A program made the translations under genes and the position numbers. The notes under the pieces were generated by a model. It was not told the DNA's origin. It saw only the letters and a list, made by a program, of their open reading frames with translations, and ran no database searches. 64,000 nt of DNA from Escherichia coli (GTDB lineage: Bacteria > Pseudomonadota > Gammaproteobacteria > Enterobacterales > Enterobacteriaceae): the NCBI RefSeq assembly GCF_003991155.1, contig NZ_CP031294.1. One strand, written 5' to 3'. Shown here in pieces: positions 17,145-35,023 of this stretch; the stretch's first letter is position 1; each line of letters starts with the position of its first letter.

Positions 17145-17256
17145 AGATCCCTCTAAAACACACAGAGCGCGTCCATGCGCTCTAAAACAACTTGTTTACT
17201 GCATCTGCTAACCAACTTGTTTTCTGGGGTGTTTAATTAGGTCTGGCATGTCTTAC

Positions 17257-28606: not shown

Positions 28607-28936
28607 TTACTCGAATACTTCAAGAAACTCCTGAACGTCCCAATGCTGGACAAGGTGAAGATAGACCTTAGAAATAACATCATTCTCGCTATCGCATGTG
28701 AAGTAGTACTTCTGGCTGCGGTTGTATGTGTCCACACAAAATTCGCTCATATCCATAAAGTCAGCATCTTCACCCATGTCGCAAATCATCAAAGCAGGTG
28801 CGTCATCACGAGTCATCAGCTCAAGCACCCACCGCGAATTGATCAGAGTGGAAGACCAACCTTCTAACTCATAAAACTGATCAAACTCTTTTTGAGTTAA
28901 TTTCTTGATTTGGTTGATGTCGATATTTGCAAACAT
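28607..28936 (-). CDS. hypothetical early protein
   Basis: Start at ATG 28934-28936 (MFANIDINQ), AGGA RBS, motif-A leader at 28948-28983. Confidence 0.45.
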   Translation of the reverse strand: MFANIDINQIKKLTQKEFDQFYELEGWSSTLINSRWVLELMTRDDAPALMICDMGEDADFMDMSEFCVDTYNRSQKYYFTCDSENDVISKVYLHLVQHWDVQEFLEVFE

Positions 28937-30490
28937 AAAGCAATCCTTAAACAACATGTTTTCTTGATGGTGTTATTATCGCAATAACGCACAGGTGAAA
29001 AAGGATTTTATTCCGGTGAATGTGGTTTTGGCAGTGAGTTTTCAGGTTCAGTACCGAGTACACTTTTTACATTATTCTGATTTAGTGGCCGAAGGTGGCT
29101 GGTGGGCAGAATAATCCTCTCCCCGAAAACCTACTGAAATCGATTGTGACCCGTTGGCTGTCTGGCACAATTACGCTGTAACTGGGCATTCAGAGGGAAT
29201 CCAGCGGTAAGTAAGTTCGCCTGCACGTGAGCGCCTCTCTTCTTCCCGCACATTACAGGTGGGTAGCCGCAACTCTCCCTCTCGCTATACCGGTACGCCG
29301 CCGTTCCTGAACCGGCATCGAGCCTTCTCCCGAAATCCACACAGGCAACTCGACCGTTTCCCTGAAAACCTCCAGCCGTTCCCCGAAGGCAACCCAGCCG
29401 TTTCTGTAGCGGGATGCAACCTTTTCCCTGTATGGACCGAAGGCTGACCGTAGGGGTGTTACGGGGGATAAAATCAGGAGTTGAATAAATACGAAAAAGG
29501 AGGCGACACCCCTCCTTCTCTCCCCACTTATACATACCTGGCTTCTTCGCTATACATGTTGTGTTTTATTCGTGTTTTATCTGTCTCAACCTCTCTATGG
29601 ACGTTAATACTCACTCCTTCCAGAACGTTCTATACGGCGACTAATTCTGTTGGTGAATTGGGTGTGTTGTTCTCTCTGTCGGTGTATGTGGTTTCGTTCG
29701 TTTTGCGGTGGTTCTTCTATGGGGTGTTCTCGTCGTTTTGGTGATTGTTCTTCTCCGTGTATGGAGTAATGGCAGGTGGGCGATTCCTTTCGTTATTGTG
29801 TTTGAGTTGTTTGTCTGGAGTGCGTGAAGGGCTTTTGTAGTTATTCGTGTGTTGGGTAATGGCGTTTCCCGTGATTGTTCTGTTTCGTGTCTTTTGGGAT
29901 TGAGAGAAACCTTGCGGTTACAGGCTTCGTTGGGGTTTCAGTGATTCTGGTGTTTCTTCGCTGTTTGGGTAATGGCGTGTCGTGGGTATCGCGCGTATGG
30001 AAGTTTCGAATTGCCTGTGAAAGTTAGGTTGGTTGTCCGGTAGCCTGAGAAGAAGAGGTGGGTCTTTTCGGTAGCCTGCCATAAAGAGGTTGGTTGTTTT
30101 TGGTAATGGCATATGTGTTATTTAGTTGTTTTGTTATGCCTGAAAATAAGTTGTTTATATGGTTATGTAACGCAACGGGAACGATTTTGAGCGTGTGTTT
30201 TTGTTGGTAGTGTGTTGGGTCGTCTGTGGTGAAAATTGGACGCTGTGGCGCTGTCTGCTGCGTAGAATTACGGGTATAAGCAGTGATGTGTGAAAACGTC
30301 AATTTTTTAGACCAAATCGGGTGAAAGCGTTGATGTTTCGTTGATCTGTTATTCAGTTGTTTTCTTATTGGTATAAACAACTGTAACCTATTGATATTTA
30401 AGGATGTGATTCCAGGCATGGAAGGGGAGTAGTGGCGATCAACGGATTCTTATAGAAAAGAATCAAATTGTGACCGCCATTATCAATGTT

Positions 30491-31225
30491 TTACTTAGTT
30501 TTGTTTAGCAGAGAGAGAATTTCATCACTAATTTCACTCGCCTGTTTGATAGCCAATGCAGTTACCTCTTCTATGGTTGGTGACTGTTGATGCTCATATT
30601 TGGTTTCGGTTATGACAATGTGTTCTTCACCAGAATTTGCGCATAGTGCCGCATTGACGATAAGGTTTGAGTAAGAATTTAGCAGAGCACTGTTGATGAA
30701 CGCTTTCACGGTATTACTGTCTGCACCAAATACATCTTTTCTGACCGCTTCAGCCTCACAGCGAACCCCTGCAGCAACATCGTGAAGAACATGTATGGCC
30801 TTGGAGCTTGTTTGTTCACAGTACTCAATCATTATTGTCGAATTGTTCTGTTCAACAAACGATCTGATGCCTGACGATTTACCCATAGCATCGAAGGCAG
30901 CGTGACCCGCACTAGTAGAGATATCTTCATAGAGTTCTTCATCGCTATCTTTTTCTTCAGGTGTCGAGGTGTCTTCATCGTCGTAATAGATATTGCCTTT
31001 AATCAGTGTCTTGGACACTTGATATAAACAATAAGAAACGAGATTTAAGCATTGGATTTTAGCTGTATTGTCCTTTGTCGCCTCGCTATTCAGTTCTTTC
31101 GCTTCTTCAGTAAGGCTGTTGATAAGACTTTGTATTTTTTCCAACGCGTTAGGTGCACACTCCGCGTTGTCCATAAAGAATTTATAACCAGTCCCAGGGA
31201 TTTCTAAACTTTTCAACTTTTTCAT
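30491..31225 (-). CDS. hypothetical protein (AT-rich gene)
   Basis: 244-aa ORF with ATG start; AT-rich composition distinct from neighbours. Confidence 0.45.
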   Translation of the reverse strand: MKKLKSLEIPGTGYKFFMDNAECAPNALEKIQSLINSLTEEAKELNSEATKDNTAKIQCLNLVSYCLYQVSKTLIKGNIYYDDEDTSTPEEKDSDEELYEDISTSAGHAAFDAMGKSSGIRSFVEQNNSTIMIEYCEQTSSKAIHVLHDVAAGVRCEAEAVRKDVFGADSNTVKAFINSALLNSYSNLIVNAALCANSGEEHIVITETKYEHQQSPTIEEVTALAIKQASEISDEILSLLNKTK

Positions 31226-31731: not shown

Positions 31732-33765
31732 TTACTTAACCTGGTGGCCTGGTTTAGCACCAGCATCCGGGCTTAACAGGAAGATATCTTTCCCGCCGGG
31801 GCCAGCAGCCATCACCATGCCTTCGGAGATACCGAAGCGCATTTTACGCGGAGCCAGGTTAGCCACCATAATGGTGTGACGACCAATCAGTGCCTGTGGG
31901 TCTGGATAAGCAGAACGGATGCCTGAGAAGACATTACGCTTTTCACCACCGAGATCCAGTGTCAGACGCAGCAGTTTGTCAGAACCTTCGACAAACTCCG
32001 CGTTTTCAATCAGCGCCACACGCAGGTCAACTTTGGCGAAGTCGTCAAAGGTGATGGTTTCCTGAATCGGGTCGTCAGCCAGTGGGCCAGTTACCGGTGC
32101 AGCTGTGGCTTTCACTTCTTCTTTGGATGCTTCCACCAGTGCTTCCACCTGTTTCATATCGATACGGTTATACAATGCCTTGAACGGATTCACTTTATGG
32201 CCCAGCAGCGGTTGCTGGATACCATCCCAGGTCAGTTCTGTATTCAGGAATGCTTCTGCACGTTCAGTCAGTTTCGGCAGTACCGGTTTCAAGTACGTCA
32301 TCAGCACGCGGAACAGGTTAATGCCCATAGAGCAAATCGCCTGCAGATCGGCATCGCGTCCTTCCTGCTTCGCCACCACCCACGGAGCCTGTTCATCGAC
32401 ATATCGGTTAGCCAGGTCAGCCAATGCCATGATTTCACGGATAGCTTTACCAAATTCGCGGCTTTCCCATGCTTCGCCAATCACTTCAGCGGCATCAGTA
32501 AAGGTTTTGTACAGTTGCGGGTCAGCCAGTTCGCTTGCCAGCACGCCGTCAAAACGCTTGTTGATAAAGCCTGCATTACGGGAGGCCAGGTTAACCACTT
32601 TGTTCACGATATCGGCATTCACGCGCTGAACGAAATCCTCCAGGTTGAGATCGATATCATCAATGCGCGAAGAGAGTTTCGCAGTGTAGTAGTAACGCAG
32701 GCTGTCGGCGTCAAAATGATTCAGCCAGGTGCTGGCTTTAATAAAGGTGCCGCGAGACTTGGACATCTTCGCGCCGTTCACCGTCACATAGCCGTGAACA
32801 AACAGGTTGGTCGGCTTGCGGAAGTTGCTGCCTTCCAGCATGGCAGGCCAGAACAGGCTGTGGAAGTAAACAATATCTTTACCGATGAAGTGGTACAGCT
32901 CGGCTGTGGAGTCTTTCTTCCAGTATTCATCGAAGCTGGTGGTATCGCCGCGCTTGTCGCACAGATTCTTGAAGGAACCCATGTAGCCAATCGGCGCGTC
33001 CAGCCAGACGTAGAAATATTTGCCCGGCGCGTTCGGAATTTCAAAACCGAAGTAAGGCGCATCGCGGGAGATATCCCACTGTTGCAGGCCGGATTCAAAC
33101 CACTCCTGCATTTTGTTCGCCACCTGCTCCTGCAACGCACCGCTGCGGGTCCATGCCTGCAACATTTCGCTGAAAGAGGGCAGATCAAAGAAGAAGTGTT
33201 CGGAATCACGCATTACCGGGGTAGCGCCAGAAACCACCGATTTCGGCTCGATCAATTCAGTCGGGCTATATGTTGCGCCGCAGACTTCACAGTTATCGCC
33301 GTATTGATCTGGCGCTTTACATTTCGGGCAGGTGCCTTTCACAAAACGATCCGGCAGGAACATGCCTTTTTCCGGGTCGTACAACTGAGAGATAGTGCGG
33401 TTTTTAATAAAACCGTTCTCTTTCAGGCGAGTATAGATAAGCTCAGACAGCTGGCGGTTCTCTTCGCTGTGCGTCGAGTGATAGTTGTCATAGCTGATGT
33501 TAAAGCCTGCGAAATCAGTCTGGTGTTCCTGACTCATTTCGCCAATCATCTGCTCCGGTGTGATACCAAGCTGCTGTGCTTTCAGCATGATCGGCGTACC
33601 GTGGGCATCGTCGGCACAGATGAAATTAACCTCGTGGCCGCGCATTCGCTGGTAACGAACCCAGACATCAGCCTGGATGTGCTCCAGCATATGGCCGAGG
33701 TGGATTGAGCCGTTAGCGTACGGCAGCGCGCACGTCACCAGAATTTTCTTCGCGACTTGGGTCAT
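31732..33765 (-). CDS. metG: methionyl-tRNA synthetase
   Basis: 677-aa product [29 protein letters not shown]... recalled as essentially E. coli MetG (HIGH motif, KMSKS, C-terminal tRNA-binding domain); start at ATG 33763-33765, ORF-track upstream extension rejected. Confidence 0.97.
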
Positions 33766-33922
33766 AGTAGGCATTACTTCTTTGTAGTGAAAAGGGGCTT
33801 GATAGTAACAAAATGGCCTTATGTCTGCCATGTGATAACAGCATTTCTCATAAATGATTAAATGTCGTAGCTGGAGTACACTACAAGGCGACAATTGCGC
33901 AAATTAAAATAAAGGAGACGGG

Positions 33923-35023
33923 ATGAGCGAGTCCAAATCGCCGGATGCCCTGAGAGCAATGGTAGCCGGTACGCTGGCTAATTTTCAGCACCCAACCCTG
34001 AAACACAACCTGACTACGCTTAAAGCGTTACACCATGTTGCGTTGATGGATGACACACTGCATGTCGAACTAATCATGCCTTTCGTGTGGAATAAGCCTT
34101 TTGAAGACCTGAAAGAGCAATGTAGTGGTGATCTGCTCCGTATCACTGGCGCAAAGGCTATTGACTGGAAGCTGTCGTACAACATTGCCACGCTTAAGCG
34201 CGTCAAAAACCAACCAGGCATTAATGGCGTTAAGAACATTATCGCCGTCAGCTCAGGCAAGGGCGGCGTGGGTAAATCCTCCACGGCGGTAAACCTGGCA
34301 CTGGCGTTGGCTGCTGAAGGTGCGAAAGTTGGTATTTTGGATGCCGATATCTATGGTCCATCAATTCCAACCATGCTGGGCGCGGAAAACCAACGTCCAA
34401 CCTCACCTGACGGTACTCACATGGCACCTATCATGTCTCATGGCCTGGCAACCAACTCTATTGGTTATCTGGTCACCGACGACAATGCAATGGTGTGGCG
34501 TGGACCGATGGCCAGCAAGGCGCTGATGCAGATGTTGCAGGAAACTCTATGGCCTGATCTGGACTATCTCGTTCTCGATATGCCGCCGGGCACTGGTGAT
34601 ATTCAGTTGACGCTGGCGCAGAACATTCCTGTAACTGGTGCGGTTGTGGTAACTACGCCGCAAGACATCGCGCTGATCGATGCGAAGAAAGGCATTGTGA
34701 TGTTCGAAAAAGTCGAAGTGCCGGTACTGGGTATCGTCGAAAACATGAGTGTGCATATTTGCAGTAACTGCGGTCATCACGAGCCAATTTTTGGCACCGG
34801 TGGCGCACAGAAACTGGCCGAGAAATACAACACGCAGTTGTTAGGCCAAATGCCACTTCATATCTCTCTTCGTGAAGATCTGGATAACGGAACACCAACC
34901 GTTATTAGTCGTCCAGATAGCGAATTTACGGCTATTTATCGTGACCTCGCAGATCGCGTTGCCGCCCAAATGTATTGGCAAGGTGAAGTAATACCTGGCG
35001 AAATCGCATTCCGCGCAGTGTGA
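33923..35023 (+). CDS. apbC: Fe-S cluster carrier ATPase ApbC/Mrp
   Basis: 366 aa; P-loop SSGKGGVGKSSTAVNLALALA; CxxC motif ICSNCGHHEP; divergent from metG as in Escherichia chromosome. Confidence 0.95.
   Translation: MSESKSPDALRAMVAGTLANFQHPTLKHNLTTLKALHHVALMDDTLHVELIMPFVWNKPFEDLKEQCSGDLLRITGAKAIDWKLSYNIATLKRVKNQPGINGVKNIIAVSSGKGGVGKSSTAVNLALALAAEGAKVGILDADIYGPSIPTMLGAENQRPTSPDGTHMAPIMSHGLATNSIGYLVTDDNAMVWRGPMASKALMQMLQETLWPDLDYLVLDMPPGTGDIQLTLAQNIPVTGAVVVTTPQDIALIDAKKGIVMFEKVEVPVLGIVENMSVHICSNCGHHEPIFGTGGAQKLAEKYNTQLLGQMPLHISLREDLDNGTPTVISRPDSEFTAIYRDLADRVAAQMYWQGEVIPGEIAFRAV

Follow-up and report, generated by a model that had tools for sequence, protein, structure and literature searches.

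The 64,000-nucleotide stretch of Escherichia coli DNA analyzed here (contig NZ_CP031294.1 of assembly GCF_003991155.1, hereafter the window) contains, at positions 28,937 to 30,490, an element that is real, conserved, non-coding, and unannotated and that belongs to a phage-plasmid family of wide clinical distribution. To judge from its sequence and surroundings, the element appears to be a conserved boundary module between variable cargo genes and early phage operons. We tentatively propose, at less than even confidence, that it is a stop zone for transcription from both sides, largely of the Rho type, that would insulate the early lytic operons and would also serve as a boundary and regulatory platform. 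This proposal is based on the location of the element at the junction of cargo and early genes, the conserved opposite compositional polarities of its two halves, hairpins specific to the minus strand, and the near-absence of RNA from it in lysogens.

The region from 28900 to 30500 was found to share 99.9% identity with 110-kb E. coli plasmids, pEC17CM6_2 among them, and it was matched in 244 of 5426 complete E. coli genomes, every match being plasmid-borne. The identity was 97% to phage Cyrano (pLF82) and 68–74% to SSU5 and Klebsiella phage-plasmids, and 832 records of a plasmid collection, from Klebsiella, Escherichia, Enterobacter, Salmonella, Citrobacter, Cronobacter, Shigella, Buttiauxella, and Raoultella, matched the region. 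On account of these matches to Cyrano, SSU5, the Klebsiella phage-plasmids, and the plasmid collection, we identify the window as part of an SSU5/pHCM2-type phage-plasmid. The search of the plasmid collection yielded no homolog of the region among Yersinia plasmids, and a hunt for distant relatives by way of a flanking protein and a DNA scan of a genome collection returned close relatives only. Full-text literature searches found no study of the region, and the PHROG matches of the neighboring proteins were all of unknown function.

In plasmid coordinates, the element lies at 75.6–77.2 kb, and no other non-coding gap of the plasmid is as large; repA, with its iterons, is at position 0 kb, whereas the genes for DnaE, a DnaB-like helicase, primase, ligase, and RecA are at 4–30 kb. 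The right-hand neighbor was a minus-strand gene, reading leftward into the gap, in all 12 annotated homologous loci, although it was at least six different genes, whereas the early genes on the left-hand side were conserved across these loci.

The preliminary description of this DNA had called the stretch gene-free, and this was confirmed. The left gene starts at 28936 according to the NCBI Prokaryotic Genome Annotation Pipeline (PGAP), or at 28957 in our list of open reading frames (ORFs), and the stop codon of the right gene is at 30491. The homologous 1.4–2.0 kb in 12 diverse loci was either empty in the PGAP annotation or held isolated "hypothetical" calls. Codon periodicity was evaluated in a 13-sequence alignment by means of the max-phase fraction, which is the largest share of substitutions falling on one codon phase. 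This fraction was 0.34–0.43 with a shifting phase in the region, compared to 0.46–0.53 with a constant phase in a neighboring control gene, and so the region has neither a conserved frame nor an excess of third-position substitutions. The plus-strand ORFs of the window were stopped or frameshifted in other lineages, and a conserved protein-coding frame, which would have overturned the earlier view, was absent from the homologous loci compared. No tRNA or tmRNA was found by a dedicated search.

It had also been suggested that the stretch is functional as well as non-coding, and this view gains support from its retention across genera, from its divergence being less than that of its coding neighbor (0.25–0.36 compared to 0.46 per site between deep lineages), and from a compositional polarity that has been kept at ~33% divergence. 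The most conserved block (29747–29776) was 92% identical, and the block 28967–28996 was 81% identical across 13 loci.

A strong G+T skew had been attributed to the entire stretch. This holds for ~29600 to 30390, where the G+T fraction peaks at 0.79 per 100 nt (the 99.9th percentile of the window) and the GC skew is greater than 0.25 over ~670 nt, three to four times the length of any other such run in the 64 kb. It does not hold for the left part, from 29200 to 29600, which is C-rich and has the opposite GC skew of −0.2 to −0.38. Across nine lineages, the right module had a G+T fraction of 0.65–0.71 and a GC skew of +0.26 to +0.39, and the left module had a GC skew of −0.17 to −0.29. Both polarities were thus kept in 9 of the 9 lineages examined, with the sign changing at a hairpin that we call H1. 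Because the two modules have opposite polarity, a transcript entering from either side would be C-rich and G-poor. The minus-strand transcript of the G+T-skewed module (29600–30390) would consist of ~40% A, 30% C, and 14% G and would be unstructured: its C/G ratio is 2.1–3.25 per 100 nt over 29700–30299, and its predicted fold energy, −0.15 kcal/nt, is no better than that of shuffled sequences.

Hairpin H1 (29491–29520, minus strand), which came from a terminator scan, is at the point where the skew flips and is followed by a U-rich tail, so that the whole feature spans 29484–29520. As minus-strand RNA, 121 of 126 of its pairs can form, compared to 79 of 126 as plus-strand RNA, with consensus fold energies of −5.5 and 0, respectively. 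The scan called H1 as a terminator for Klebsiella as well as for the window, but not for SSU5, which is missing the U-tract. A second hairpin, H2 (30433–30479, minus strand), directly follows the stop codon of the upstream cargo gene, whichever gene that is, and marks the right boundary of the conserved module. It has a 9-bp stem without a U-tract, and its pairs are present in 104 of 108 cases on the minus strand compared to 91 of 108 on the plus strand (consensus energies of −10.0 and −5.9), the inner stem having been rebuilt from different sequence in different lineages. H1 and H2 pair well only as minus-strand RNA, and therefore leftward transcription into the region appears to be biologically relevant.

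Beyond these local hairpins, the structure and covariance analysis that had been recommended earlier gave no sign of a structured RNA on either strand. There was no global fold: relative to dinucleotide shuffles, the single-sequence fold of 29490–30270 had z = −0.45 on the minus strand and +2.08 on the plus strand, and that of the left half had z = +1.13 and +0.65. The consensus folds were weak, with covariation terms of only about −3 kcal/mol. Rfam 15 gave no match at the gathering threshold anywhere in the window, the best permissive hit scoring 19.8 bits compared to a gathering score of 40.2.

A search for a leftward transcript in RNA-seq data had likewise been recommended, and public data exist for Cyrano in strain LF82, given as log2(FPKM + 5), where FPKM is fragments per kilobase per million mapped reads (PMC9928086 S1 Table). 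The re-annotated Cyrano genome has two minus-strand pseudo-ORFs in the gap, CYRAN_103 (window 30025–30381) and CYRAN_104 (29131–29535), which report on the skewed part and the left part of the element. CYRAN_103 had a value of 2.32, equivalent to 0 FPKM, in both replicates in lysogeny broth (LB) and did not exceed 4.27 (~14 FPKM, under macrophage conditions) elsewhere, and CYRAN_104 was at 2.6–4.7, or ~1–20 FPKM (PMC9928086). Both neighbors are expressed: the upstream cargo gene CYRAN_102 was at 5.6–9.2 (50–590 FPKM), and the downstream early gene CYRAN_105 reached 7.8 (~220 FPKM) in macrophages (PMC9928086). The drop from CYRAN_102 to CYRAN_103 falls at H2. Therefore, instead of the anticipated transcript, approximately 0 FPKM was found over the skewed part, and leftward RNA does not accumulate over this module even when the neighboring canonical early promoter is active.

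That promoter belongs to a family of sites with a shared leader, CCAAYAAGAAAACA, of which there are seven minus-strand copies in the window (nine matches on both strands, compared to 1.5 expected). In six of the seven copies, a GATAAT-like −10 hexamer comes before the leader, and the palindrome AAACA-N3-TGTTT comes after it, together with a ribosome-binding site and ATG. The left boundary of the element (28937–28985, minus strand) has such a canonical early promoter, with the −10 hexamer GATAAT at 28980–28975, the leader CCATCAAGAAAACA at 28970–28957, and the putative operator palindrome at 28949–28962, and it drives the downstream gene, which encodes 109 amino acids. The preliminary description had placed another early leader motif at 30353–30385, pointing into the stretch. 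The motif is indeed there on the minus strand (CCAATAAGAAAACA, 30358–30371, within a feature ending at 30385), but as a promoter it is degenerate, lacking a usable −10 hexamer, the second operator half-site, a ribosome-binding site with ATG, and a gene behind it.

The 13-bp palindrome AAACA-N3-TGTTT was found at ~13 places in the window (26 strand hits compared to 2.9 expected), of which two are at or inside the region. Sites are at 17184, 17210, 26326, 26811, 27561, 28464, 28948, 30143, 31583, 31634, 44401, and 45130, and most copies are just downstream of a GATAAT-type −10 hexamer and upstream of small minus-strand genes. By its sequence and distribution, the set looks like the operators of a master repressor, as for C1 of P1, or like dispersed centromere sites, as in N15. 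The internal copy, AAA(C/T)A-N3-TGTTT at 30143–30156, is accompanied by a half-site at 30123–30134; this putative operator (30123–30158, no strand assigned) is conserved in all lineages and is one of the two least stable duplex spots of the region.

Promoter-like sites were scored with position-weight matrices and were required to hold in all lineage groups, and two good sigma-70-like sites were found. The first, TTGTGA-16-CACAAT (TTGAGA-16-CAGAAT in other lineages), occupies 29144–29171 of the plus strand and points rightward into the C-rich repeats described below. It has the best conserved promoter-like score of the region (8.4–10.9, above the 99.9th percentile of the window), with hexamers kept and a variable spacer. 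The second, TTGACG-18-TATACC, is on the minus strand at 30302–30273 and points leftward into the skewed module; it scored 7.0 in all four lineage groups (~99.5th percentile), with both hexamers invariant and, again, a variable spacer.

The repeats reported in the preliminary description proved to be real. Units of the GGGTAATGGC type (GTAATGGC) are at 29764–29773, 29854–29863, 29967–29976, and 30101–30110, all on the plus strand of the G+T-skewed module, and the window has seven of them compared to 2.7 expected, a number reached in 0 of 100 shuffles. The motif CGGTAGCCTG occurs twice, at 30038 and 30069, within a plus-strand 31-nt tandem of two copies (CGGTAGCCTG-N4-AAGAGGTGGGT-CTTTT, 30038–30099) that has 1–3 copies elsewhere. 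Direct reading and alignments also revealed six degenerate ~22-nt direct repeats in the C-rich module ((A/G)CCGTTYCCCYGAA, of the CCGTTYCCC type, plus strand, 29301–29440), spaced 21–31 nt apart with a GG periodicity of 10.75 nt; natural deletions fall between these repeats (loci L036 and L044). All repeat families are on the plus strand only in every lineage, and their copy number is lineage-specific, with 3–6 copies for GTAATGGC, 1–3 for the CGGTAGCCTG tandem, and 3–5 for the CCGTTYCCC type by pattern count, which compares to six by eye in the window. The antitoxin repeats of a type III toxin-antitoxin system were also considered as a model for the 31-nt tandem, but it has only 1–3 copies and no adjacent co-oriented gene.

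According to the proposed stop zone, RNA polymerase coming from the cargo genes would first meet H2, then produce ~750 nt of untranslated, unstructured, C/A-rich, and G-poor RNA on which Rho could load, and then reach H1. Rightward transcripts, starting at the 29144–29171 site or coming from a small plus-strand gene in SSU5-type genomes, would carry the C-rich RNA of the 22-nt repeat module and would end in the same central zone. The putative repressor operators at 28949 and 30143 and the half-sites at 30123 and 30358 would be embedded in this zone, and together with the unidirectional arrays (GTAATGGC, CGGTAGCCTG, and CCGTTYCCC) they may form a platform for DNA- or RNA-binding proteins of the phage. 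The minus-strand RNA has the composition of a Rho-dependent terminator, in that it is C-rich, G-poor, unstructured, and untranslated over at least ~80 nt, and from this we infer the dependence on Rho, as we infer the insulating role and the existence of proteins that would bind the repeats.

Several points weigh against this proposal. A Rho loading site needs ~80–100 nt, not 750. The RNA-seq drop occurs already at H2, and therefore the long module may be unnecessary for termination, H2 being enough. Composition alone does not explain blocks of up to 92% identity, an invariant 10-mer, and ordered repeat families. The LF82 libraries were strand-resolved, but the paper is silent on whether the counting was strand-aware (PMC9928086). 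Both terminators are weak, H1 having no U-tract in SSU5-type genomes and H2 having none at all, and the conserved leftward promoter-like site at 30302–30273, inside the module, makes little sense in a pure terminator.

Known Rho-dependent terminators include rut regions such as λ tR1, and Rho silences horizontally acquired DNA in E. coli. The element resembles these terminators in that its nascent RNA would be untranslated, C-rich, G-poor, and unstructured and would be followed by a hairpin or pause site, in that RNA is absent downstream of an expressed gene, and in that it resides in a prophage that needs to be silent. It differs from rut sites in that the skewed tract is ~10 times longer, and from Rho terminators in general in having ordered and conserved repeat families, operators, an internal promoter-like site, and a second module of opposite polarity fused back to back with the first. 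Among known systems, the element comes closest to a Rho-dependent terminator region that also has phage operators, but it greatly exceeds the known examples in length and in order.

The main rival explanation, already raised in the preliminary description, is that the element is a cis-acting DNA element, either a lytic replication origin or another protein-binding array, which we consider possible although doubtful. In this view, the binding sites of a phage initiator would be the six 22-bp repeats, the GTAATGGC and TGTTCT units, or both, and the convergent flanking promoter-like sites, held by a repressor at the embedded operators, would become active on induction. Since DnaE, a DnaB-like helicase, primase, ligase, and RNase H are all encoded by the phage-plasmid itself, a lytic origin must exist somewhere; the element, as the largest non-coding gap of the plasmid, with its embedded operators and promoter-like sites, its unidirectional repeat families of lineage-specific copy number, and its silence in lysogens, would be a fitting place. 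Its absence from the Yersinia plasmids searched would also make it dispensable for maintenance, if pMT1-type relatives truly lack the region.

The known iteron-type origins of phages and satellites include oriλ and P4 ori/crr, and oriλ is laid out as iterons, an AT-rich stretch, and then a palindrome. The layout of the element is similar, with one-strand short direct repeats (the six phased units at 29301–29440) about two helical turns apart, adjoining a modestly A+T-richer stretch and a dyad, here a hairpin, in a repressor-controlled non-coding region flanked by transcription. In contrast to oriλ and P4 ori/crr, however, the element has no adjacent or overlapping initiator gene, the replication genes being ~45 kb away, and no DnaA boxes or strong unwinding element. 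The A+T-richer stretch beside the repeats (29459–29498) reaches only the ~95th percentile for low duplex stability, and the weakest spots are at the operators. There is no exact DnaA box in the region, only four hits with one mismatch each; DnaA boxes, integration host factor sites, GATC clusters, and phased bending showed nothing distinctive there, and GATC was depleted (1.2 per kb compared to 4.4 per kb). The GTAATGGC units are not helically phased, and when GC skew is cumulated over the whole plasmid, repA is its only turning point. An origin would also leave the 750-bp keto skew, which is not a feature of oriλ or P4 ori/crr, and the minus-strand-specific hairpins without explanation.

Two other kinds of plasmid locus were considered and rejected. 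The RepA (IncFIB) origin and incompatibility locus has iterons (ATCCACTATAGAGAGC) that flank repA, 34 kb away, and that bear no resemblance to the CCGTTYCCC repeats. An origin of transfer does not fit with the typing of these plasmids as non-mobilizable, and published surveys have found no such origins in phage-plasmids.

The preliminary description had favored a long non-coding RNA running leftward from ~30350. In its present form, this explanation posits a ~0.77-kb minus-strand RNA made in lytic growth only, from the 30302–30273 site or the 30385 leader to H1, whose repeated single-stranded motifs GCCAUUAC and CAGGCUACCG would bind a host or phage factor. The minus-strand-specific hairpins keep this idea alive, as do the invariant hexamers and variable spacer of the promoter-like site, the G·U pairs and U-tail of H1 at the expected 3′ end, and the location of all motifs on one strand. 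We nevertheless think it unlikely: the leader copy is degenerate as a promoter, and CYRAN_103, at 0 FPKM in LB, did not rise above ~14 FPKM under macrophage conditions, with the neighboring early promoter on. The RNA would have no structure (z = −0.45), covariation, or Rfam match, and a C-rich untranslated RNA should be terminated by Rho.

The element resembles CsrB/RsmZ in being long and non-coding and in repeating short motifs; CAGGGAAAMGG is found several times on the minus strand of the left module. Unlike in CsrB/RsmZ, the motifs are not in conserved hairpin loops, there is no Rfam match, and GGA is not above dinucleotide expectation (6 compared to 6.5 expected in the right module, and 9 compared to 6.9, p = 0.19, in the left module). 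Since GGA is not enriched, the element is not a CsrB-like sponge for CsrA. A GcvB-type sponge was rejected as well, the CA-rich runs being poorly conserved between lineages.

A transcript of the other strand is a more distant prospect. A plus-strand RNA starting near 29178, G/U-rich, C-poor, and resistant to Rho, would silence the early mRNAs in trans through segments 30123–30134 and 30357–30371, which are complementary to the 5′ leader shared by all early mRNAs, and RfaH could be recruited by the invariant ops-like CGGTAGCCTG of the non-template strand. In favor of this idea, the plus strand has the best of the conserved promoter-like sites, the segments complementary to the leader have been conserved, and consensus folds of 29800–30300 favor this strand (z = −4.3 and −5.4 relative to column shuffles), although this control inflates scores. 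However, the single-sequence fold was worse than that of shuffles (z = +2.08), covariation contributes little, and the plus strand yielded no terminator. Such an RNA would also be C-rich over its first 340 nt, and the 29144–29171 site is absent from SSU5-type genomes, which have a gene there instead. As for ops itself (GGCGGTAGNNTG on the non-template strand), its positions 3–12 resemble CGGTAGCCTG, whose second copy is invariant across lineages, but both plus-strand copies lack the two initial Gs, and no plus-strand operon lies downstream. The match was made post hoc, and the three ops-like matches in the window, compared to 1.1 expected, were equaled or exceeded in 11 of 100 shuffles. We therefore hold this explanation to be improbable.

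Phage immunity RNAs that pair with early leaders include the P4 CI RNA, with seqA/seqC, and the c4 RNA of P1/P7. Like the loci of these RNAs, the element is a non-coding stretch of a plasmid-prophage with complements and copies of a shared early leader. Unlike in those loci, no small structured RNA, processing site, or terminator can be defined, and Rfam, which holds the c4 family, returned no match. There is an equally slim chance that the G+T strand is transcribed in lysogens as an antisense to every early mRNA leader, while the same DNA acts as a Rho trap for leftward transcription. If this were true, the anti-leader RNA would be a one-to-many antisense immunity system for the whole phage-plasmid family.

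That the element is a decayed or unrecognized coding sequence, such as one for small hydrophobic peptides from the G+T-rich strand, or a pseudogene, is extremely unlikely. The G+T-rich frames do translate as hydrophobic peptides, frame 29708–29800 is uninterrupted in the lineages of E. coli, Salmonella, Enterobacter, and Citrobacter, and some records have ORFs annotated here (SSU5_108–110 and CYRAN_103/104). However, this frame has a shift and a stop in Klebsiella and has been lost by deletion in Buttiauxella, ribosome-binding sites are lacking, PGAP omits the ORFs in most genomes, and the region lacks codon periodicity while being more conserved than a real neighboring gene; hidden small hydrophobic ORFs were accordingly rejected as not conserved. 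The element thus belongs to no Rfam family and is neither a CsrB-type sponge, nor the RepA origin, nor coding sequence.

The left part of the element exists in two versions. The segment 29010–29230 is exchanged for a small plus-strand gene in SSU5, pHCM2, Enterobacter Eh27, and a Citrobacter plasmid; this gene, SSU5_110 (L004 2630–2872), encodes 80 residues and matches phrog_23830, with no function assigned. The non-coding version, with a conserved Chi octamer (GCTGGTGG, 29098–29105, plus strand) and the plus-strand promoter-like site, is present in the window, in Klebsiella and Buttiauxella, and in some Salmonella and Enterobacter. An array of Chi sites was rejected as the cause of the G+T skew, the gap having one exact Chi and two matches with one mismatch. 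The window as a whole has 18 exact copies of GCTGGTGG (8 plus, 10 minus) compared to 1.6 expected, an ~11-fold excess that was reached in 0 of 100 shuffles; the sites include 2621, 2869, 5706, 14574, 17441, 21922, 25655, 25780, 26486, 26965, and 29098. The plasmid encodes its own RecA and a 5′–3′ exonuclease, and with these the excess of Chi hints at recombination-dependent growth or at protection from RecBCD.

A 769-bp piece of the element was also found on several records of ~200-kb Klebsiella IncFIB/IncHI1B plasmids (L002 5717–6484 and L003 5717–6469). It is 93–95% identical to the Klebsiella phage-plasmid lineage, is flanked by insertion sequences on these large non-phage plasmids, and begins midway through the G+T-rich module and ends precisely at the right boundary past H2. 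This piece is probably a remnant of recombination, but a role as a decoy for element-binding factors is conceivable. The cargo beside the element in the window (31732–35023) includes metG, encoding methionine-tRNA ligase, and the divergently oriented apbC/mrp, genes that the E. coli chromosome has in the same arrangement, which suggests that a chromosomal segment was captured by the phage-plasmid. By far the highest-expressed Cyrano gene in the LF82 data was the hypothetical gene CYRAN_43 (OV696614.1 40268–40822), between the glutaredoxin and integrase genes, at ~700-fold above the background of the element.

Phage-plasmids of the SSU5/pHCM2 type, which carry resistance genes, occur commonly in clinical E. 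coli, Klebsiella, Salmonella, and Enterobacter. The junction module described here is a candidate for how such phage-plasmids tolerate arbitrary insertions of cargo without triggering lysis. Whether the element proves to be a stop zone or a lytic origin, a basic feature of this family would be explained, and a handle for curing or inducing its members would be gained.

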